From positions 1-6,862 of the IMG/VR virus record IMGVR_UViG_3300000268_000080: DNA of 6,862 nucleotides; one strand, written 5' to 3'. Source of the stretch: a virus. Each line of letters opens with the position of its first letter. Position 1 is the stretch's first letter. Below, piece after piece: positions 1-6,862 of the stretch. The notes below the pieces were generated by a model that did not search any database, was not told where the DNA came from, and was given only the letters and a program-made list of their open reading frames with translations. A program made the translations under genes and the position numbers.

Positions 1-99
1 AATAAAAATGAATTACATGGTTTGGTATTTCTTCATTTTTGGATTTGTAGCTCACATGTACTTCATTTACCGAATTATTAGAAGGATTCAGCGCAATGG
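1..99. repeat. Terminal direct repeat, copy A (identical to 6764-6862); marks circular closure of a 6,763-nt genome
   Basis: Base-by-base comparison: nt 1-99 (aataaaaatgaattacatgg...gcgcaatgg) are identical to nt 6764-6862, offset 6763. Confidence 0.95.
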
Positions 100-130
100 C
101 TTACGTTTGCGAATCGTTAGAGATTATTAA
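8..130 (+). CDS. 40-aa small hydrophobic protein; positional analogue of the pVII/pIX minor coat class
   Basis: ATG 8 to TAA 128-130, below the ORF-track size cutoff. Translation: MNYMVWYFFIFGFVAHMYFIYRIIRRIQRNGLRLRIVRDY, a hydrophobic N-half with a basic C-tail. In the circular molecule AAGGA (6757-6761) lies 9 nt upstream of the ATG (6771). It sits between the ssb-like gene and the major coat gene, as gVII/gIX do in Ff phages. Confidence 0.5.
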   Translation: MNYMVWYFFIFGFVAHMYFIYRIIRRIQRNGLRLRIVRDY

Positions 131-284
131 TGGCGTTCAAACGTGTGCTAACTGGGTTCTTCAAAACTCAATTCTGCCCGTATTGACTCTTGAACAAGCA
201 TCCATGCTTGGGGGTTCTTACTGGTTTGTCCTTGTCGTAGCAAAGGGCTTTAGAGAATTAGGCTACATGATAAAAAAACATTAA
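96..284 (+). CDS. 62-aa small protein with a C-terminal hydrophobic segment; second pVII/pIX-position minor virion protein candidate
   Basis: ORF-track ORF. AAGGA (82-86) lies 9 nt upstream of ATG 96. It has a hydrophobic GGSYWFVLVVAKGF segment and a basic end (IKKH). It overlaps the preceding 40-aa ORF by 35 nt in another frame and lies directly upstream of the major coat gene. Confidence 0.55.
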   Translation: MAYVCESLEIINGVQTCANWVLQNSILPVLTLEQASMLGGSYWFVLVVAKGFRELGYMIKKH

Positions 285-306
285 CCCAAACATTAGGAGA
301 TTTCTC

Positions 307-582
307 ATGGGTCAATATTTAACTCCAGAAGTAAAGCAAGAAATTAAAAACCAAACTGCTCATATGTCTTTCTTTGAGCGTAATCAAGCTCGCTTTGCTG
401 TCGCAACTCTTTTAAGTCTTGGTGCTGTTGGTTCTGCCAATGCTGCTATGCCTGACATTGATACTGCTGACATTCTTACTTATATCGGCTTGCTTGTAGC
501 TGCTGTTGCAACTGTCGGTTCTGCCTTTTTGATGGTTTATCTTGCAGCAAAAGGAATCAAAGCTATTCGAGCTGCGTTCTAA
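307..582 (+). CDS. Major coat protein precursor (pVIII-like)
   Basis: AGGAG (295-299) lies 7 nt upstream of ATG 307. The signal-peptide end is ...LSLGAVGSANA|AMPD. The predicted 45-aa mature peptide is AMPDIDTADILTYIGLLVAAVATVGSAFLMVYLAAKGIKAIRAAF. It has an acidic N-terminus (3 Asp), a hydrophobic core and a basic C-terminus (K,K,R), the hallmark of inovirus major coat proteins. Confidence 0.85.
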   Translation: MGQYLTPEVKQEIKNQTAHMSFFERNQARFAVATLLSLGAVGSANAAMPDIDTADILTYIGLLVAAVATVGSAFLMVYLAAKGIKAIRAAF

Positions 583-591
583 TCAATCAAT

Positions 592-669
592 CATAAGCGC
601 ACCTGCTAAAACAAAGTAGCGCAGCGAGGGCGCGCAGCGAGCAACTTTTTTTAGCGGGGGTGCATTATG
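592..669. other. GC-rich island forming a long imperfect hairpin; candidate post-coat-gene terminator and/or ssDNA structural element
   Basis: Nested complementary arms: CATAA 592-596 / TTATG 665-669; GCACC 599-603 / GGTGC 659-663; GCTAAAA 605-611 / TTTTAGC 649-655. The core has a tandem direct repeat GCGCAGCGAG (619-628, 632-641). An inner GC hairpin pairs 620-622/637-639 and 624-626/633-635, followed by T7 (646-652). Local GC content is far above the rest of the genome. Confidence 0.45.
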
Positions 670-742
670 GCTGAAATTTTTCCTTACTTCGTCCTACTCT
701 TATTTGTTGTAACTGGCAACATTCTTTTTAAGTGAGCTGGTT

Positions 743-2410
743 ATGAGATTTTTTAAATATTTATTTTTTTCATTTTTTCTTTTCTTTTCTCTTAATGTTC
801 ATGCTGTTCAGCAGTGTTCTTATATTGTTGAATCCTATGGTTCACACGCCAGAACGGCAACTGATAGTATTTCTGCTGCATGTTCCGCTGCCAAGCAAAG
901 ATATAGCGAGGCTTATCATGCTAGTTGTGGAGTTCCTGCGGGTTCTACTCAAATTTGGATGGGTGATATCGTTATTGGTTATACCTCATGCCAAGAGGTT
1001 AAATGTACCGCCGGTGAAACCGCATTCTTAGACGGTTATATTACTTCTCAATCTGCTTTTGCTCCTACATCTGTTTGTTATTCCGGTTGTACTTATTCAA
1101 ATGAATCCGGTGGTACTGCTTTTGATACTCCAAATGGTAATTTGTCTTGGGGCTTTGATGCCAAAAAAACCGGTGCAACCTGTTCCACTGATACTCCAAA
1201 AGGTGAAGATAAACCCAATGGTGACGGCACTGGTGGCGATGGTGGTGACGGTGGCGGTGGTGATACTGGCGGTGGTGGCTCTGATGGTGGCTGTACTGAA
1301 ACTGGTTCAACTGCTAACTGTAATGGCGGTTCAGGTGGTGGCGGTGGCGCAGGTGCCGGAGGTGGTGCAGGCGGTGGCGGTGGTGGCTCTGGTGGTAAGG
1401 GCGGTGATGGTGGCGTAGGTGGTGCAGGCGGCCAAGGTGGAAAGGGCGGTGATGTAACTATCAATATGACTCCAGTGGTTAATGCTGTTAATAATATGTC
1501 TTCTGCTATTGTTAATAAATTAACTTCTGTTTCATCCCAGATTACTAGTGCTATCAGTGACATGAAAACATCAATTACTGATGCTATAGGTATTACAAAT
1601 TCAAAAGTACAAGCCGTAAAAGATGAAGTTGCTGCACAGGGACAACAAACCCGTTCTGAAATTGCAAAAAATACTGCTGCTGTAAACTCTGTAAAACAAT
1701 CAGTTGATGCCAATACTGAAGCTGTTAACGACATGAAATCTGCTGTTAATCAGCAAACAAAAGCCATTAATGATGTAAAAGCTTCTGTTGATGCTAATAC
1801 AACTGCTATTGGTGCTGTTAAATCTGCTGTTGATTCGGTTAAATCTGCCGTTGATGCTGTTGCCTCTAAAATAGATAAAGCTGCTGCTGATACAGTCGAA
1901 GCTGTTAATGCCAGTGCCAATAAAATCACTTCCGCAATCTCTGCCGATGGCAATGCTACCCGTCAAGCAATTAATGCTGATGGTGATGCAACCCGTAAAA
2001 CAATGACTGAACAGGGCGATGCAACCCGATCTGCAATCAATGCCAATGGTCAAAAAATCACGGATGCTGTTAAAGAAAATACAGAAGAAACAAAAAACAC
2101 CAATTCACTTCTTGAAGATTTAAAAGAATGGCTCACTGGTGAAGAACATTCAGAAAATTCTGATGGTGTTATTGATGTTGTAGAGCAAAATGTTGATATG
2201 AATCTTCGTTCTGACCATCTTAACGCTAATGCTTCATGTCCTGCGCCTTTACAGATTCCAATTAAACTATTTCAAACTCATACCATTGAATATAAATATG
2301 ACACTTTTTGTTGGGCTGCTTCTGTAGCTCGGCCTTGGATTATTTTCGTTGGAATGCTCGTCGCTTTCCTTATTGTTACTGGTCAATACAGGGGTGGTGC
2401 AAGTGATTAA
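743..2410 (+). CDS. pIII-like minor coat / host-adsorption protein (555 aa)
   Basis: Signal peptide MRFFKYLFFSFFLFFSLNVHA|VQQ. An 8-Cys N-terminal domain is followed by a long Gly-rich linker (aa 160-237). A C-terminal hydrophobic anchor (PWIIFVGMLVAFLIVTG) sits near the end. It is the largest ORF and lies between the major coat and pVI-like genes, the canonical gene III position. Confidence 0.8.
   Translation: MRFFKYLFFSFFLFFSLNVHAVQQCSYIVESYGSHARTATDSISAACSAAKQRYSEAYHASCGVPAGSTQIWMGDIVIGYTSCQEVKCTAGETAFLDGYITSQSAFAPTSVCYSGCTYSNESGGTAFDTPNGNLSWGFDAKKTGATCSTDTPKGEDKPNGDGTGGDGGDGGGGDTGGGGSDGGCTETGSTANCNGGSGGGGGAGAGGGAGGGGGGSGGKGGDGGVGGAGGQGGKGGDVTINMTPVVNAVNNMSSAIVNKLTSVSSQITSAISDMKTSITDAIGITNSKVQAVKDEVAAQGQQTRSEIAKNTAAVNSVKQSVDANTEAVNDMKSAVNQQTKAINDVKASVDANTTAIGAVKSAVDSVKSAVDAVASKIDKAAADTVEAVNASANKITSAISADGNATRQAINADGDATRKTMTEQGDATRSAINANGQKITDAVKENTEETKNTNSLLEDLKEWLTGEEHSENSDGVIDVVEQNVDMNLRSDHLNANASCPAPLQIPIKLFQTHTIEYKYDTFCWAASVARPWIIFVGMLVAFLIVTGQYRGGASD
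1220..1453 (+). repeat. Low-complexity GGT/GGC-rich coding tract (Gly linker of pIII)
   Basis: It encodes GDGTGGDGGDGGGGDTGGGGSDGG...GGSGGGGGAGAGGGAGGGGGGSGGKGGDGGVGGAGGQGGKGGD. Its antisense reading creates the spurious Pro-rich 213-aa ORF in the track. Confidence 0.9.
1943..2074 (+). repeat. Four tandem 33-nt (11-codon) units inside pIII
   Basis: In-frame units are ADGNATRQAIN / ADGDATRKTMT / EQGDATRSAIN / ANGQKITDAVK. GATGCAACCCG recurs in units 2 and 3. A further 21-nt tandem (GTTAAATCTGC[T/C]GTTGAT) lies at 1817-1855. Confidence 0.85.
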
Positions 2411-2678
2411 AGTTCTTCTTATTGTCCTAAACATATTTCTTTCTAGTGGCGTTAAAAGACTTCTTACTGGTGCGGGTCTTGGTCTTGGCACTTTTGTTGT
2501 TTCACAAACAATGTTTTCTAGTCTTTTAGGTCATGTCAAAAATAATTTTGGTGCTCTTGGTGACATCTTTTGGTTGATCTCTCTTTCCGGCCTTGATGTT
2601 GCGCTTAGTTTAGTAATTTCAGGCATTTCAATACGTCTAACAATGAATGCCGGTAAAATATCATTGAGGAAATTATAA
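2403..2678 (+). CDS. pVI/Ace-like small integral membrane virion protein (~91 aa)
   Basis: The frame is open from 2349, but the GTG at 2403 has AGGGG (2390-2394) 8 nt upstream. That GTG overlaps the pIII stop (GTGATTAA), suggesting translational coupling. The product is very hydrophobic with 2-3 predicted TM segments (VIKVLLIVLNIFL..., GLGLGTFVV..., DIFWLISLSGLDVALSLVISGISI) and a basic tail. It lies between the pIII-like and pI-like genes, the gene VI / ace position. Confidence 0.7.
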   Translation: MIKVLLIVLNIFLSSGVKRLLTGAGLGLGTFVVSQTMFSSLLGHVKNNFGALGDIFWLISLSGLDVALSLVISGISIRLTMNAGKISLRKL

Positions 2679-2679
2679 A

Positions 2680-4227
2680 ATGTTATATGCAATTATTGGC
2701 AAGCCTGGACAAGGTAAATCATATTTTGCTGTTACTAAAATGTATGAACAGCAAGAATTAAATAATCATAATATTCAAAAGAATGTAGAAATCCATTTTG
2801 AAAATAAAGCCATTTTAAAAGATCGTGGTATTGATCTTGATACTCGTACAGAATTTACTTTTCCCCGTGAATCAAAAGAAGATGATCAAACCGTTATTCG
2901 TGATTTTACCTTTAGATTGAATCATTTCTTGAAAATTGAAGATGAAGAACAGTTTGAAGATTATTTTGAAATGTATCTTCTCTACAATGATTTTATAAAA
3001 CACATTAATTCTGTTCATGGCATTACTTTGGCTTTCCTCCTTCCAGTACGCCAAATTTATTCTGATATTAACGGCCTTAAAATCAATGGAATTAAATTTG
3101 CACCGCGTGACTGGAGAGAAACCCCATTGGGTTCAATTCTCTATATTGATGAGATCCGCAGAAAACCGCCTTATAACTATGATGGAAACCGACCTTCTAC
3201 CGATCCAATCATTTTAGGTATGTCTGAGGTTCGGCATTCCGATAAAGATGTTTATTTGATTTCACAGGACGCAGAAGATTTAAATAAATCCCTTCGTCAA
3301 TTGGTTGATAAAATGTATTTTATCAAACGTCCTCCTCAGAATGTTGCAGCTTGTGCTATTTATACCTTTGACCAGTGGATTGGTCGTCCTCGTGCTGCTG
3401 CTGATTCAAAACGTGAACCTAAAAAATACGTAGATCATCAAATTCTTACTTATAAGAAAAAGTATTTCGCGCTTTATAAATCTGCTTCTAGTCACGTTTC
3501 TATGAAACGCTCTATTAGTTGGAAAGTCTTTGCTTGGATACTCTTTTTTATTCTTCTTGTATTAGGTGTATTGGTTGGCCTTGCTAAGATTCCAATTTTT
3601 CAATACTTCGGTTCTGCTATTTCTCAAATGACTGGTAGTGAATCAAATAGCCTTGAAGGTTTAAAAGGTGCGCCTATTCCTGACGCTTCTAAAAATCCTG
3701 AGATTCAAAATAAGGTCAATTCTTGTATGGAACAATTCGGTTGGACTGAACAACAATGTTTAGAGGCTGCCGATCCAACTGTACGTGACCAACGTCATGA
3801 AGAATTACAGCAACAAACTAGAAATGATATGGAAACAATTGTCTTTGATTACAACCCATCAAAACCTTTTAATGATATGTCTACAATGATTTCTTATGAG
3901 CCGACTGCAAAACCTGTCTTTAGTGGTTGTATGAAAAAACATGGCCGTTATGTTGCTTATACCCAGCAAGGAACTATTTTAAAAAATGTTTCTCAAGATG
4001 ATTGCAGACGTATCATAGAGCAGGGTGATAGACCGTTTAATTATTTCCAACAACCACAACAACAGGTTCAACAACCACCAACACAACAAGAAAATCCCGC
4101 TTATCAGAAGTCTTATCTTGAAAATCTTGCTCGTTTAGATGCTCAAGCTGCTCATTCTAGTAGTCAACAGAGGGAACGGAGTGTTCCCGAACAACAGTTA
4201 TCTAATCCTGAAACTTCTTCTCTCTGA
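2680..4227 (+). CDS. pI / Zot-family morphogenesis (assembly) ATPase, 515 aa
   Basis: N-terminal P-loop MLYAIIGKPGQGKS (Walker A, nt 2698-2721) and Walker-B-like ILYIDE. A single TM segment, WKVFAWILFFILLVLGVLVGLA, is encoded at nt 3520-3585. GAGGA (2666-2670) lies upstream, and ATG 2680 follows the upstream stop by 1 nt. The gene order matches gene I / zot. Confidence 0.9.
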   Translation: MLYAIIGKPGQGKSYFAVTKMYEQQELNNHNIQKNVEIHFENKAILKDRGIDLDTRTEFTFPRESKEDDQTVIRDFTFRLNHFLKIEDEEQFEDYFEMYLLYNDFIKHINSVHGITLAFLLPVRQIYSDINGLKINGIKFAPRDWRETPLGSILYIDEIRRKPPYNYDGNRPSTDPIILGMSEVRHSDKDVYLISQDAEDLNKSLRQLVDKMYFIKRPPQNVAACAIYTFDQWIGRPRAAADSKREPKKYVDHQILTYKKKYFALYKSASSHVSMKRSISWKVFAWILFFILLVLGVLVGLAKIPIFQYFGSAISQMTGSESNSLEGLKGAPIPDASKNPEIQNKVNSCMEQFGWTEQQCLEAADPTVRDQRHEELQQQTRNDMETIVFDYNPSKPFNDMSTMISYEPTAKPVFSGCMKKHGRYVAYTQQGTILKNVSQDDCRRIIEQGDRPFNYFQQPQQQVQQPPTQQENPAYQKSYLENLARLDAQAAHSSSQQRERSVPEQQLSNPETSSL

Positions 4228-4302
4228 TTACAGGCTCCCATTTGATTTAGATCGGGAGATACAGAGCATCCCGAATGGGTGCGAACTTTGTGAGGTGAAT
4301 TA

Positions 4303-4404
4303 ATGAGATCAGATAATATTCGATGTACTTTATGTGGCAAGATTATTCAAAAGCGTTTTATGGTTTCTCATCTTTTGAAATATCACCCTTTTTATACTTT
4401 TTAA
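4303..4404 (+). CDS. 33-aa micro-ORF with a C2H2-like zinc-knuckle spacing
   Basis: GAGGTGA (4292-4298) lies just upstream of ATG 4303, and the stop is TAA 4402-4404. Translation: MRSDNIRCTLCGKIIQKRFMVSHLLKYHPFYTF, which gives C-x2-C-x11-H-x4-H. It is too short for the ORF track. Confidence 0.4.
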   Translation: MRSDNIRCTLCGKIIQKRFMVSHLLKYHPFYTF

Positions 4405-4415
4405 TGATTTTAGTA

Positions 4416-4443
4416 TTGCTTAAATCATGATTTATGATATATT
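4416..4443 (+). promoter_or_regulatory. Sigma70-like promoter for the 105-aa orphan gene
   Basis: -35 TTGCTT (4416-4421), 16-bp spacer, extended -10 TGaTATATT (4435-4443). It lies about 30 nt upstream of ATG 4473. Confidence 0.5.
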
Positions 4444-4480
4444 TAAATCATGAATTAAATAGGAGATAAATCATGATTCA
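4421..4480. promoter_or_regulatory. Three 14-bp palindromic operator-like boxes (TAAATCATGATTTA family) at 23-bp spacing
   Basis: Box 1 is 4421-4434, TAAATCATGATTTA, a perfect palindrome that fills the -35/-10 spacer. Box 2 is 4444-4457, TAAATCATGAATTA (13/14), just downstream of the -10. Box 3 is 4467-4480, TAAATCATGATTCA (13/14), and contains the ATG of the 4473 ORF. Centre-to-centre spacing is exactly 23 bp twice. Confidence 0.6.
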
Positions 4481-4790
4481 TAAAAAAATGACTGTTGGCG
4501 CTGCAATTGAATATCTACAGACAACTAAATGGTCTGAAACTGTCTATCAGGTTGTTGAGGTTTCTGATATGTCAAAATTAGATGATGAAGGAATCCCTAT
4601 AGAAGATAAGTATCAAGTTGTTGTTTATCTCGAAGATGTTTCTGATCCTGATTATTGTGTTCAGATTCATTTTGTAAAGGCTCGTGATGGATCACCTTTT
4701 TATTTTCGTTCTTTGGATCGTGTTTTTAATGATATTTTGTTTAAACGTGATTCTACTTTGAAGATGTTAGGAAATCGTCTACCTTTTTAA
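4473..4790 (+). CDS. Hypothetical 105-aa soluble, mildly acidic protein (orphan cargo gene)
   Basis: AGGAG (4461-4465) lies 7 nt upstream of ATG 4473. There is no TM segment and no motif I recognise. I count 17 D/E versus 13 K/R. It has its own promoter and operator array. Confidence 0.75.
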   Translation: MIHKKMTVGAAIEYLQTTKWSETVYQVVEVSDMSKLDDEGIPIEDKYQVVVYLEDVSDPDYCVQIHFVKARDGSPFYFRSLDRVFNDILFKRDSTLKMLGNRLPF

Positions 4791-4805
4791 TTACTGGAGA
4801 GATCA

Positions 4806-4898
4806 ATGATTGATAGGGTTCGTTTAGTTGGTTATGTGCTTGGCATGTTTTTAATGTTTTTGATGTTATGTCTTTTCGAGTATTTAAAAATTCTATAA
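4806..4898 (+). CDS. 30-aa single-TM micropeptide
   Basis: TGGAGAGATCA (4795-4805) immediately precedes ATG 4806. Translation: MIDRVRLVGYVLGMFLMFLMLCLFEYLKIL, ending at TAA 4896-4898. Confidence 0.4.
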   Translation: MIDRVRLVGYVLGMFLMFLMLCLFEYLKIL

Positions 4899-4917
4899 AT
4901 TTTCATTGGAGAGATCA

Positions 4918-5007
4918 GTGGGTAATTGCTTTATGTGTGGGATCGTTAAACTACAACTTATTATTGCTTTGATTATAGGTGTATTTTATTGGGTTTTTTC
5001 TTATTAG
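4918..5007 (+). CDS. 29-aa single-TM micropeptide (GTG start)
   Basis: The identical 11-nt TGGAGAGATCA (4907-4917) immediately precedes GTG 4918. Translation: (M)GNCFMCGIVKLQLIIALIIGVFYWVFSY, ending at TAG 5005-5007. An alternative internal ATG lies at 4933. Confidence 0.35.
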   Translation: MGNCFMCGIVKLQLIIALIIGVFYWVFSY

Positions 5008-5041
5008 GCTGATTTCTTGTAGTTTCAATTTTTGTAATATG

Positions 5042-5069
5042 TTTACAGGTTTACTTTTGTATGTATAAT
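5042..5069 (+). promoter_or_regulatory. Sigma70-like promoter upstream of rep
   Basis: -35 TTTACA (5042-5047), 16-bp spacer, consensus -10 TATAAT (5064-5069). Confidence 0.45.
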
Positions 5070-5073
5070 AAAA

Positions 5074-5103
5074 AAGCCTAAAGAATTGGCGTTCTTTAGG
5101 CTT
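5074..5103. other. Perfect 12-bp stem / 6-nt loop hairpin: candidate (+)-origin or packaging hairpin; in - orientation it looks like an intrinsic terminator
   Basis: AAGCCTAAAGAA (5074-5085) pairs perfectly with TTCTTTAGGCTT (5092-5103); the loop is TTGGCG. CGTTCTTTA (5090-5098) is identical to 9 nt of the f1 (+)-origin nick region (..CACGTTCTTT^AATAGTGG..). On the - strand the stem is followed by TTTTTTATTATA. Confidence 0.5.
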
Positions 5104-5135
5104 CGGTGTCTAAACGTATTTTAAATCGGTGTCTA
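5103..5135 (+). repeat. Two direct 10-nt iterons TCGGTGTCTA, 23 bp apart, between the hairpin and the rep start
   Basis: The copies at 5103-5112 and 5126-5135 are identical. The second overlaps the possible GTG start (5129) of rep. Confidence 0.6.
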
Positions 5136-6208
5136 CGATGAATCAAGTTGTTTCTTCTTTGGATCTTAGTAATCCTGTTGATGTTTCGTTTTTAAAAAAT
5201 CTTTCTGCTGCTTCTTCGCGCGTTTCTGCTAAAAATACAAAATCTGAATTACGTGACACTGGGCTTGTCTCTATATTAACAAGTGACACGCCTTATAAAA
5301 TAGAACTACCGTCTCAAGATTATTTACGTTTAAAGCGGTTACAAAAGTCTGTTCGTGTTACGGCTGAGGTTGTTGAAGAAAAAATAAAGGCTTTCAATCA
5401 AAGAATGAAGCCTGCAATGGTTACTTTGACTTATCGTCCTGACGTTTCTTGGTCTGCAAAGCATGTTACTGACTATGTAAAGTGTGTTAAGCAATGGGCT
5501 AAAAGAAAGGGTCTTGCTGTTCACTATATTTGGGTTATGGAGCTAACTAAAAAGGGTGTCCCTCATTATCATGTCATGTGGTGGATTCCTAAAGGTCATA
5601 CAATGCCTAAAGCTGATAAACAAGGATGGTGGAAACATGGCATGACTAATAGTGTTTGGGCGCGTAAACCTGTTGGTTATCTTTGTAAATATACATCTAA
5701 GGGTATTGATCCACAGTCTTACGGTAAAATTCCTAAAAATGCTCGTTTGCATGGTTCTGGTGGTTTAACTGTTCCAATGCGTGTTTCAAAAATATGGTTA
5801 TGTTCCCCGTCTTGGGTGCGTGAATTATTTGATATTAATAATGGTGTAAAAAAGTTTGGTTGTTATTGGGTGGATCGTGTCACCTTAAAAGGTTTTTCAT
5901 CCCCTTGGCATTTTGATCATAATTCTCGTGTTTTGAAGTGGAAGGGTTTCGGTTCTGTCGTTGATATAACCGAATTAGATAAATATAAGCAAATGTACCC
6001 CAATAAGATGCCTGTTTCAGTATCTATGTTTTATCACTATGATCATGATCAATTTTCTTTTGCATCTGATCTTTATTCTATTGATTCTAAAAATATTCCT
6101 GCTTTTGATATGCAGAATTATTTGTCTTATTCTCGCCCTGCTGGATGTGATGATGATTTTGCTATTTTTGATTATTTCCTTGATGTTTGTGAAGAATTAC
6201 ATTTCTAG
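5129..6208 (+). CDS. Rolling-circle replication initiator (HUH endonuclease superfamily), 359 aa
   Basis: Motif 1 is AMVTLTY. Motif 2 (HUH) is PHYHVMWW, with H-Y-H at nt 5564-5572. Motif 3 is GYLCKYTSK, with two Tyr in Y-x3-Y spacing (nt 5678-5692), as in phiX174 gpA-type Reps. The start is ambiguous: GTG 5129 (track) or ATG 5138 (GGTG 6 nt upstream). Confidence 0.85.
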   Translation: MSTMNQVVSSLDLSNPVDVSFLKNLSAASSRVSAKNTKSELRDTGLVSILTSDTPYKIELPSQDYLRLKRLQKSVRVTAEVVEEKIKAFNQRMKPAMVTLTYRPDVSWSAKHVTDYVKCVKQWAKRKGLAVHYIWVMELTKKGVPHYHVMWWIPKGHTMPKADKQGWWKHGMTNSVWARKPVGYLCKYTSKGIDPQSYGKIPKNARLHGSGGLTVPMRVSKIWLCSPSWVRELFDINNGVKKFGCYWVDRVTLKGFSSPWHFDHNSRVLKWKGFGSVVDITELDKYKQMYPNKMPVSVSMFYHYDHDQFSFASDLYSIDSKNIPAFDMQNYLSYSRPAGCDDDFAIFDYFLDVCEELHF

Positions 6209-6394
6209 TTCTCCATATTTATTAACAGAGATACTTTTTATACCTATGTCTAAAATTTTGTGAGCTATTTCACTATCTTTGAGCGGTTCTTTATTCATAG
6301 ATATTAATATTTTATTAATTTCTATGCATTTTTTTCGAAGATTTTCGCTCTGTACTTCTTTGATTCGTAACATTTTGATCATTTTTACTACCAT
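6197..6394 (-). CDS. 65-aa small regulator candidate, possibly ribbon-helix-helix (Arc/CopG-like); only minus-strand gene
   Basis: The - strand reads TACAGGAGTAAACAAA-ATG, placing AGGAG 8 nt upstream of the ATG (complement of 6392-6394). The product is K/E/I-rich with a pattern of short beta (MLRIKEV), helix (SENLRKKCIEINKILI), turn, helix (KDSEIAHKILDIGIKSI). The xSEIxxxxL segment resembles RHH helix B. It faces a repeat-rich intergenic region. Confidence 0.6.
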   Translation of the reverse strand: MVVKMIKMLRIKEVQSENLRKKCIEINKILISMNKEPLKDSEIAHKILDIGIKSISVNKYGELEM

Positions 6395-6395
6395 T

Positions 6396-6470
6396 TTGTT
6401 TACTCCTGTACCAAATATACTTGTTTACAACATATTTTTTTTATGTTTACATATTTCAAAGTAAACATAA
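6396..6470. promoter_or_regulatory. Divergent control region with four TGTTTAC boxes, including a perfect 10-bp inverted repeat
   Basis: TGTTTAC occurs at 6397-6403, 6422-6428 and 6444-6450, and inverted as GTAAACA at 6461-6467. TTATGTTTAC (6441-6450) and GTAAACATAA (6461-6470) form a perfect inverted repeat with a 10-nt spacer. The region lies between the - strand regulator and the + strand ssb-like gene. TTTACA -35-like hexamers are present, but I could not pin down a convincing -10 in either direction. Confidence 0.6.
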
Positions 6471-6483
6471 ATGGTAATTTAGC

Positions 6484-6750
6484 ATGGATATTTTCAAAGC
6501 TGTTTTAATTGATGTAAAGACCGGTGATTTTAATAATTTAGTATTTGAATCAACTAAGTATGATATGGGGCTTGGTAAAGATGTTCCTTGTTCTGTTCAA
6601 ATTATGGTTTCAAAAGAACATGAGTTTATGATTCCTGAATATAAAAAATATATTGGTAATGAGTTTACAATACCTGTACGTTTACTTGTTACAAAGAAAC
6701 AAACAATTATGCGGATTACTGGTGCTGATGGTCTTCCATTTGTTGCTTAG
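6484..6750 (+). CDS. 88-aa gene-V-position protein; putative ssDNA-binding protein
   Basis: The ORF is clean, soluble and lacks a TM segment. Its size matches Ff gVp (87 aa). It is the first gene of the structural block, directly upstream of the small coat ORFs. The assignment rests on size and synteny only, and the SD is weak. Confidence 0.55.
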   Translation: MDIFKAVLIDVKTGDFNNLVFESTKYDMGLGKDVPCSVQIMVSKEHEFMIPEYKKYIGNEFTIPVRLLVTKKQTIMRITGADGLPFVA

Positions 6751-6770
6751 GCTAAAAAGGAATAATAAAA

Positions 6771-6862
6771 ATGAATTACATGGTTTGGTATTTCTTCATT
6801 TTTGGATTTGTAGCTCACATGTACTTCATTTACCGAATTATTAGAAGGATTCAGCGCAATGG
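6771..6862 (+). CDS. 5' part of the 40-aa ORF (duplicate of 8-99), truncated by the window end
   Basis: ATG 6771 has AAGGA (6757-6761) upstream. The sequence is identical to nt 8-99, and the complete copy is 8-130. Confidence 0.5.
   Translation, partial: MNYMVWYFFIFGFVAHMYFIYRIIRRIQRN

Follow-up and report, generated by a model that had tools for sequence, protein, structure and literature searches.

A conserved array of phased palindromes, most likely an operator, at the promoter of an accessory gene in filamentous phages assigned to Acinetobacter

The OR and OL operators of lambdoid phages such as lambda, 434 and P22 are built from copies of an imperfect palindrome, spaced approximately 23–24 bp from centre to centre, to which dimers of CI or Cro bind cooperatively. 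Repressors of the host can also act on phage accessory genes, as DtxR does on tox of corynephage beta, Fur on stx1, and LexA together with RstR on the PrstA promoter of the filamentous phage CTXphi. To our knowledge, nothing is known about the regulation of accessory genes in filamentous Acinetobacter phages. Phages of this kind have themselves been described only recently (PMC11209303, PMC12285184). A third comparison is offered by the acrIF8-aca2 locus of ZF40, where one inverted repeat (IR1) blocks the -35 and -10 and a second (IR2) lies in the 5' untranslated region, both being conserved across aca2 loci (PMC6765145). Here we describe an array of 14-bp palindromic boxes interleaved with the promoter of a small gene, hereafter the cargo gene, in the virus record IMGVR_UViG_3300000268_000080. 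Positions 1 to 6,862 of that record, the whole stretch analysed, are referred to as the window, and related or compared sequences as loci (L001 and so on). The genes predicted in the window form an inovirus-like (filamentous phage) set that fills it, and the box array and cargo gene are located between zot and the replication module (Table 1). We give a probability of roughly 0.5 to the reading that this is the repressible promoter of a moron-like cassette of Acinetobacter filamentous phages, read by a host factor or one that is otherwise unlinked.

The initial annotation reported three 14-bp palindromes at 23-bp phasing, one perfect and two matching at 13 of 14 positions, and this was borne out: boxes 1, 2 and 3 start at 4421, 4444 and 4467, giving start-to-start spacings of 23 and 23 bp. 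A repeat search added a half-site, box 0, which precedes the corresponding half of box 1 by exactly 23 bp. No further copy with one mismatch or fewer to TAAATCATGATTTA occurs elsewhere in the window; across 5000 first-order Markov simulations the mean expectation was 0.0102 such matches per window, and never more than one. When any perfect 14-bp palindrome accompanied by two equally spaced copies with at most one mismatch was allowed, 0 of 1000 simulations were positive. Neither the sites nor their 23-bp phasing can reasonably be put down to chance. The proposed promoter, TTGCTT-16-TGaTATATT with box 1 filling its spacer, was likewise read in the sequence, and both of its hexamers and their spacing are kept in all relatives; a simple scanner did not list it because TTGCTT matches TTGACA at only 3/6 positions. 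Box 2 covers the expected transcription start, as had been suggested, with its centre at approximately 4450, where a start located 7 nt beyond the -10 is expected. Papers retrieved in a literature search on the box motif were all unrelated, and Staphylococcus plasmid matches to the operator region (E=0.03) were recognised on reading as an unrelated AT-rich Shine-Dalgarno region.

The cargo gene had been taken for an orphan, which it is not. A word-indexed search retrieved 31 homologous proteins with 70–97% identity, all metagenomic and unannotated, and three distant, equally unannotated homologs (P0032–P0034, ∼36–50% identity) came from a full profile search against 1.8 billion representatives. 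Of the loci fetched, 18 represent the close set and five the distant one, and the gene order in all of them is zot, cargo gene, then a replication or integration module. In blastn comparisons with L001–L018, the segment from approximately 4401/4405 to 4775/4792 aligned with 77–94% identity and was the sole segment of the window to align at the DNA level to every locus. From these alignment borders, the conserved unit is therefore promoter plus gene, with sharp edges. Around it, Zot shares 24–54% protein identity with that of the window, the Rep proteins belong to four Pfam families (REP_ORF2-G2P, Phage_CRI, Rep_trans and Rep_1), and the adsorption protein is barely alignable. Prophage copies were sought by protein-pattern and DNA-pattern scans of bacterial genome contigs, which gave no true match, the single Cellvibrio hit being attributable to chance.

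Position-wise conservation was assessed across 19 non-redundant loci anchored on the centre of box 2. This box is the most conserved element, with eight of the nine positions of AAATCATGA identical in 19/19 loci and the ninth in 18/19 (L003 reads AAAGCATGA). The outer bases of box 1, AAT..GATTT, are kept in 17–19 loci, and its central CATG is replaced by CTTG, CAAG, TGTG or CACG in L003, L004, L009 and L013, without compensation. A variable centre between constant outer bases is in keeping with a dimer whose contacts are to the five outer bases of each 14-bp site. Box 0 is retained in 18–19 loci as its right half, ATGATTTT; its left side is merely A/T-rich, and a full palindrome is present in L005 and L007. 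As for the promoter, the TTG columns of the -35 (-34 to -32) are kept in 18–19 loci, the -10 reads TATAAT, TATATT or TACAAT at the same position in every locus, with TA...T fixed, and the G of the extended -10 at -14 is found in 14/19. Box 3 had been described as embedding the start codon, and in the window the ATG at 4473 does lie inside it. Across the relatives, only its left half, AATC, persists (AA at -4/-3 in 19/19 loci, TC at -2/-1 in 16–17), and the bases from +3 to +7 change along with the codons (ATGATT, ATGGTT, ATGCTT, ATGAAG or ATGTCT). Of the 84 aligned columns, 26 are invariant, and these belong to the right half of box 0, the -35, box 1, the -10, box 2, the Shine-Dalgarno sequence, the left half of box 3 and the ATG; the spacer columns vary freely. 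From this alignment, what was first called a triple array reads as two full palindromes flanked by two in-phase half-sites, box 3 being conserved as one of these and box 0 (4404–4411) as the other.

The promoter and the cargo gene are uncoupled in their sequence identity. Promoter identity to the window ranges from 65 to 93% and does not track that of the cargo: L001 combines a cargo with 99% amino acid identity with a promoter at 69%, and L027 a cargo at 50% with a promoter at 82%. The boxes are retained where the cargo has fallen to 36–50% identity (L027, L029 and L030). L034 and L035 carry the same promoter and boxes ahead of a cargo without detectable homology to that of the window, and the boxes are constant across these two unrelated cargo families. 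Moreover, the box motif clusters only at the cargo promoter in each genome. The location of the invariant columns in boxes and promoter signals, together with the uncoupling of promoter from cargo, argues for position-specific purifying selection and not for recent common descent alone.

Uncoupling of promoter and cargo identity would also be seen if the block were a recombination joint, or a recently spread cassette, at which inoviruses exchange modules, in which case the palindromes would have no regulatory role. The sharp homology borders and the highly mosaic genomes, with their four Rep families and divergent Zot proteins, are in keeping with such a joint, as are the dif-like sites (TTCGCATAATGT...) that flank the cassette as direct repeats in L034 (∼200–230 and ∼700–730). 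However, recent spread cannot explain intact boxes beside cargo DNA that has diverged to 54–61% nucleotide identity or has been replaced altogether, nor does a joint account for invariant columns that coincide with boxes and promoter signals while the spacers vary. We therefore consider this explanation quite unlikely. Dif-like sites also occur before the cassette in L006 (∼1950–1975) and in Acinetobacter phage M02 (L038, 3885–3985), which suggests XerCD-type integration; matches to a dif-like attP site in the window were at chance level only. In two other loci, distant cargo homologs with their boxes lie directly upstream of a tyrosine recombinase gene (L027, 1206–2060; L030, 1903–2751), and the slot therefore borders the integration module there.

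A second alternative is that the repeats act as nucleic acid structure and not as protein sites, either as hairpins in the packaged, single-stranded plus-strand DNA (a minus-strand origin or packaging signal) or as a 5' stem in the mRNA, between the right half of box 2 and the left half of box 3, that would tune stability or translation. The array can indeed be parsed as three 25-bp inverted repeats, ATGATTT-N9-AAATCAT, centred on the -35, the -10 and the ribosome site, and the sequence alone offers no choice between this parsing and the boxes. The parsing yields three stem-loops whose loops hold the -35, the -10 and the Shine-Dalgarno sequence, and it accounts for the conservation of box 0 in its right half alone and of box 3 in its left half alone. 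The single-stranded DNA of 4398–4482 folds at -11.8 kcal/mol (z = -3.1 against shuffled sequences), and there is a precedent in the IR2 site of Aca2 in a 5' untranslated region, for which a role as a hairpin has been suggested (PMC6765145). However, the low folding energy arises because repeated palindromes give it automatically, the stems comprise just 6–8 A/T-rich pairs, and the predicted mRNA stem is unexceptional (-3.4 kcal/mol, z = +0.1). Covariation is absent: just 2/21 pairs vary in both partners, each of them at the end of a helix, the majority of deviations are mismatches, and scores under the three-hairpin model resemble those of slid controls. The substitutions within boxes are uncompensated, and selection therefore acts on sequence and not on base pairing. 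Without covariation and with so weak an mRNA stem, the boxes were treated as protein-binding sites, and we regard a structural role as very unlikely.

As protein-binding sites, the boxes most likely constitute an operator. Under our preferred reading, 4404–4792 would be a self-contained accessory cassette in which an extended -10 promoter of sigma-70 type is interleaved with sites of the AAATCATGATTT type that keep strictly to a 23-bp register. Upstream of the -35 lies a half-site, the spacer and the start site each hold a full palindrome, and a second half-site directly adjoins the start codon. The two full sites would be bound by a dimeric, sequence-specific protein, which would spread cooperatively to the half-sites on either side, excluding RNA polymerase from the spacer and start site and possibly hindering access to the ribosome site. 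The binder would not be encoded next to the array but supplied by the Acinetobacter host or another resident element, and the cargo would be expressed only under a condition defined by the host, or briefly on entry. Cooperative repression by a dimeric regulator was part of the initial annotation; the layout on which it was based is conserved, and repression by a dimeric or multimeric protein is the most reasonable reading of conserved, phased palindromes over spacer, start site and start codon, although we infer both binding and cooperativity from the arrangement of the sites. Control separate from the morphogenesis operon, which had also been proposed, is plausible because the cargo gene has its own conserved promoter, although no terminator was found between zot and that promoter.

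Table 1. Coordinates of the array, the cassette and neighbouring features in the window (positions in other loci are labelled as such).
Feature	Positions	Strand	Details
Conserved cassette (promoter-operator and cargo gene)	4404-4792	+	blastn against relatives
Box 0, right half-site ATGATTTT	4404-4411	+	repeat search; upstream edge of conserved cassette
-35 hexamer TTGCTT	4416-4421	+	read from sequence
Box 1 TAAATCATGATTTA	4421-4434	+	perfect palindrome, 0 mismatches; fills 16-bp promoter spacer
Extended -10 TGaTATATT	4435-4443	+	TG 4435-4436; -10 hexamer TATATT 4438-4443
Box 2 TAAATCATGAATTA	4444-4457	+	1 mismatch; centred on predicted transcription start, ∼4450
Shine-Dalgarno AGGAG	4461-4465	+	7 nt before ATG; kept in alignment of relatives
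Box 3 TAAATCATGATTCA	4467-4480	+	1 mismatch; left half AAATC is the half-site, right half is Met-Ile codons ATG-ATT
Cargo gene	4473-4790	+	open reading frame; 105-aa acidic protein, predicted alpha/beta fold
Protospacer in cargo gene	4598-4629	+	adjacent A. lwoffii I-F spacer: 31/32 in window, 32/32 in L018
Coat protein B	307-582		open reading frame list and family scans
Glycine-rich adsorption protein	743-2410		open reading frame list and family scans
DUF2523 (pVI-like)	2349-2678		open reading frame list and family scans
Zot (pI)	2680-4227		open reading frame list and family scans
Zinc-finger peptide MRSDNIRCTLCGKIIQKRFMVSHLLKYHPFYTF	4303-4404		33 aa; just upstream of cassette
REP_ORF2-G2P rolling-circle initiator	5129-6208		open reading frame list and family scans
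65-aa protein	6197-6394	-	
88-aa protein	6484-6750		open reading frame list and family scans
Zinc-finger-like peptide, L015	5390-5551		
Zinc-finger-like peptides, L016	7438-7626 and 2921-3013		
Zinc-finger-like peptide, L030	855-1043		
Zinc-finger-like peptide, L034	2818-2928		
Zinc-finger-like peptide, L035	4717-4890		

The array resembles the lambdoid CI/Cro operators in that phased, imperfect palindromes overlap the -35, the -10 and the start site. It differs from them in three respects. Firstly, no HTH (helix-turn-helix) repressor gene is adjacent: the neighbours are zot, a 33-aa zinc-finger peptide, the cargo gene and two membrane peptides, none with an HTH match, and the 65-aa minus-strand gene lies 1.4 kb downstream of the cassette with different repeats. 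Secondly, the gene controlled here is accessory cargo and not part of a lysis-lysogeny switch. Thirdly, the array ends in half-sites, one of which abuts the start codon. In L022 (3346–3378), pairs of TGAATCATGATTCA with a spacing of 23–24 bp occupy the region between a cI-like (HTH) gene and a divergently oriented cro-like gene; such pairs recur in high-GC temperate phage contigs (L024, 1453–1485; L025, 2659–2691; L051, L072 and L080), with two pairs in L050 (6228–6261 and 7007–7040). A repressor family of XRE type probably reads almost the same palindrome in these contigs, which would provide an operator precedent for the palindrome of the window, as a resemblance and not a link. Most pairs of AATCATGATT in viral contigs, at 16-bp spacing, were rejected as coding sequence for GNHD phosphoesterase motifs. 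Separately, approximately ten high-GC viral contigs (L041, L046, L052 at 2184–2218 and seven others), without relation to the window, have two copies of AAAATCATGATTT at a distance of 25 bp within a non-coding stretch; in L052, a 585-aa open reading frame that is portal-type by eye only lies ∼280 bp upstream of this stretch.

One candidate reader of the array is the cargo protein itself, which had been named as a possible regulator. In this scenario the cargo protein, and its counterpart in L034 and L035, would dimerise on the boxes to switch off the promoter from which it is expressed. In favour of this, promoter-operator and gene are conserved together as a single unit, sharply bordered at 4404 and 4792 and containing no other gene, box 3 adjoins the cargo's own start codon, and in the close set the cargo always accompanies the boxes. 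Furthermore, the most conserved segment of the protein is a basic/polar stretch, RDGSPFYFRSLDRVFNDILFKRDSTLKM, and the replacement cargo (105 aa, acidic, MSDKKYTTVDG...) has a basic stretch, RDGKSRRFKTRS, at the equivalent relative position. Several properties of the protein argue against this role. Acidity is common to the whole family (net charge -4 to -7, isoelectric point 4.6–5.3; 5.05 for the window), and an AlphaFold2 model built with the distant homologs, which had a predicted local distance difference test (pLDDT) score of 90 and a predicted template modelling score of 0.80, shows a beta-alpha-beta3-alpha-beta arrangement with neither an HTH nor an RHH (ribbon-helix-helix) motif. Foldseek searches with this model returned no match at E<=0.001 in PDB or BFVD; an earlier model (pLDDT 60) and its Foldseek matches were uninformative. 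The cargo also has no match in Pfam, PHROG, NCBIfam or PADLOC.

Evolution of the pair points the same way. The operator is unchanged while the protein falls from 99% to 36% identity, and in L034 and L035 the boxes are retained ahead of a cargo that trimmed hhalign profiles could not relate to that of the window (E=0.097, probability 0.6%). Operator and cargo protein thus do not diverge together, even after replacement of the cargo. An untrimmed hhalign comparison had indicated homology of the two families (probability 89%), but this was an artefact of gene calls extended through operator DNA: in P0023, P0026 and P0038 the 13 N-terminal residues are translated operator sequence (MLYLKHDFTGDKI...), which creates a spurious common peptide. 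The 105-aa protein may still be a DNA-binding autorepressor with a fold not yet seen among repressors. Nevertheless, we find autoregulation doubtful, and less likely than control by a host or otherwise unlinked factor.

The other linked candidates put forward initially were two small phage proteins, the 65-aa minus-strand protein (6197–6394) and the 33-aa zinc-finger peptide (4303–4404). Both are small and basic (isoelectric points of 9.4 and 9.9), and the 65-aa gene occupies a position typical of filamentous-phage repressors. The zinc-finger peptide has a CxxC-x12-H-x4-H pattern, its end coincides exactly with the start of the cassette, and small CxxC..H..H/C peptides are common in this phage clade. 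Distribution among the box-bearing genomes nonetheless speaks against both. Homologs of the 65-aa protein are present in only about half of the genomes (L002, L015, L018 and L034); L014, L016, L021 and L035 encode an unrelated minus-strand protein of 68–79 aa in combination with the same boxes. Each of these protein types travels with its own Rep module, and PDB sequence searches with the two gave no match. The zinc-finger peptide is missing from many box-bearing loci, L003, L004 and L018 among them: relative to L003, where the flank runs straight into the cassette, its open reading frame is an insertion, and none was found in L004 or L018, similar peptides lying elsewhere at other genome positions. 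Zinc-finger-like peptides of this kind (30–62 aa) recur at varying positions in the clade (Table 1), and that of the window appears to be a shortened form inserted directly ahead of the cassette. The only proteins common to all box-bearing genomes are morphogenesis proteins. The Rep proteins differ in family between these genomes, which likewise speaks against them as linked readers. The boxes are independent of both small regulators, and we judge it very improbable that either reads them.

Instead of boxes, the control regions of the 65-aa gene carry TGTTTAC repeats. In the window these lie in the divergent region between the 65-aa and 88-aa genes, at 6397–6403, 6422–6428 and 6444–6450, with an inverted copy at 6461–6467. 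A further copy at 5040–5046 falls in the -35 of a strong rep promoter (TTTACA-16-TATAAT, 5042–5069). The repeats are probably the operators of the 65-aa regulator, and their presence at both its own gene and the rep promoter points to a separate circuit for this protein.

With the linked candidates disfavoured, a factor not encoded beside the array is, by elimination, best supported, and the array-reading protein is most likely encoded elsewhere, in the Acinetobacter host or another resident element. A host factor, one of the four possibilities raised in the initial annotation, is hence the best of them. As with DtxR, Fur and LexA, where expression depends on the state of the host, a palindromic operator overlies the promoter of an accessory gene and the proposed reader comes from the host; unlike in those systems, the operator matches none of the host consensus sites compared and comprises four phased sites and not one. 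Several observations weigh against our reading. The boxes scored no better than shuffled sequence against 17 consensus sites, among them those of Fur, Zur, IHF, ArgR, CRP, FNR, LexA, DnaA, MetJ, NrdR, PurR, TyrR, Lrp and Fis as well as omega heptads and dif. A spacing of 23 bp corresponds to ∼2.2 helical turns, so adjacent dimers would not sit on exactly the same face of the DNA. Part of the apparent conservation could stem from kinship and recombination between the loci. Finally, the two cargo families share their length, a KK.T.V N-terminus and an RDG..F(R/K)(S/T) motif, so they are possibly remote homologs, which keeps autoregulation alive.

The host of this phage clade was assigned from CRISPR (clustered regularly interspaced short palindromic repeats) spacers. 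A 32-nt blastn match in a plasmid of Acinetobacter lwoffii (L040, NZ_CP046295.1, 3001–3092) is a spacer of a type I-F array, with the repeat GTTCACTGCCATATAGGCAGCTTAGAAA and 63 spacers in the locus fragment. One spacer matches the window upstream of rep (5091–5122, 32/32), the adjacent spacer targets the cargo gene (Table 1), and a third corresponds to the zot 3' end of related loci and of phage M02. Furthermore, the window and M02 have in common a patch after zot, TTCTTCTCTCTGATTACAAGCTCCC. On the evidence of the spacers and this patch, the clade therefore infects Acinetobacter. At the protein level, the closest Zot is that of M02 (34% identity) and the closest Rep proteins are those of the Xanthomonas Cf1c/phiLf group (∼33%). 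No sequenced phage in the phage collection was close to the window or the cassette at the DNA level (megablast and blastn), and a tblastn search of the same collection with the cargo protein gave no match. M02 has neither the cassette nor the box, from which we conclude that the cassette is accessory; its cargo is replaceable and it carries a conserved promoter of its own.

The patch after zot (4209–4300, TTCTTCTCTCTGATTACAGGCTCCC...GGGAG...) is kept across the clade (L002, L003, L013 and, at 3520–3560, M02) and may be a packaging, origin or attachment element; its folding energy is unexceptional (z = -1.1). At 5073–5135, a perfect 12-bp inverted repeat (AAGCCTAAAGAA / TTCTTTAGGCTT), scored as a minus-strand terminator, is followed by two copies of TCGGTGTCTA that are spaced by 23 bp and closely precede the rep start codon. 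The element overlaps the CRISPR protospacer there and could be part of the rep leader or the origin. Between the cargo gene and this element, the two membrane peptides of ∼30 aa (4806–4898 and 4918–5007) each have the same ribosome site, TGGAGAGATCA, and the second shares 95% DNA identity with L014 and L015.

The presence in the host of an active type I-F array aimed at the phage invites comparison with acr (anti-CRISPR) promoters under the control of Aca repressors, such as that of phage ZF40, where a strong promoter with constant inverted repeats likewise precedes variable, small, acidic cargo without family assignment. The likeness does not extend to the regulator: no gene of aca type (HTH or RHH) follows the cargo, only the membrane peptides, and no protein is conserved downstream of the cargo across loci. 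It is conceivable that the cassette is an anti-defence slot of Acinetobacter inoviruses, encoding for example an anti-CRISPR against type I-F, with its promoter repressed by a regulator that the phage lacks. The acidic cargo and the I-F spacers against the phage are circumstantial support for such a predicted role, which we put forward as a speculative and distinctly doubtful possibility. If it holds, unrelated small acidic effectors would be swapped behind one invariant promoter, and the host, or a competing resident element, would decide when the phage deploys its counter-defence.

Nothing else in the DNA of this very mosaic phage group is as highly conserved as the cassette, which is at the same time a CRISPR target of the host. 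Its putative operator has stayed invariant while the cargo and all linked regulators were exchanged, and it represents a compact and easily testable promoter-operator. Naming the protein that reads AAATCATGATTT would show whether host or phage controls the cargo. The function of the cargo, be it anti-defence, exclusion or host modulation, could explain why the gene has been retained amid the exchange of its surroundings.

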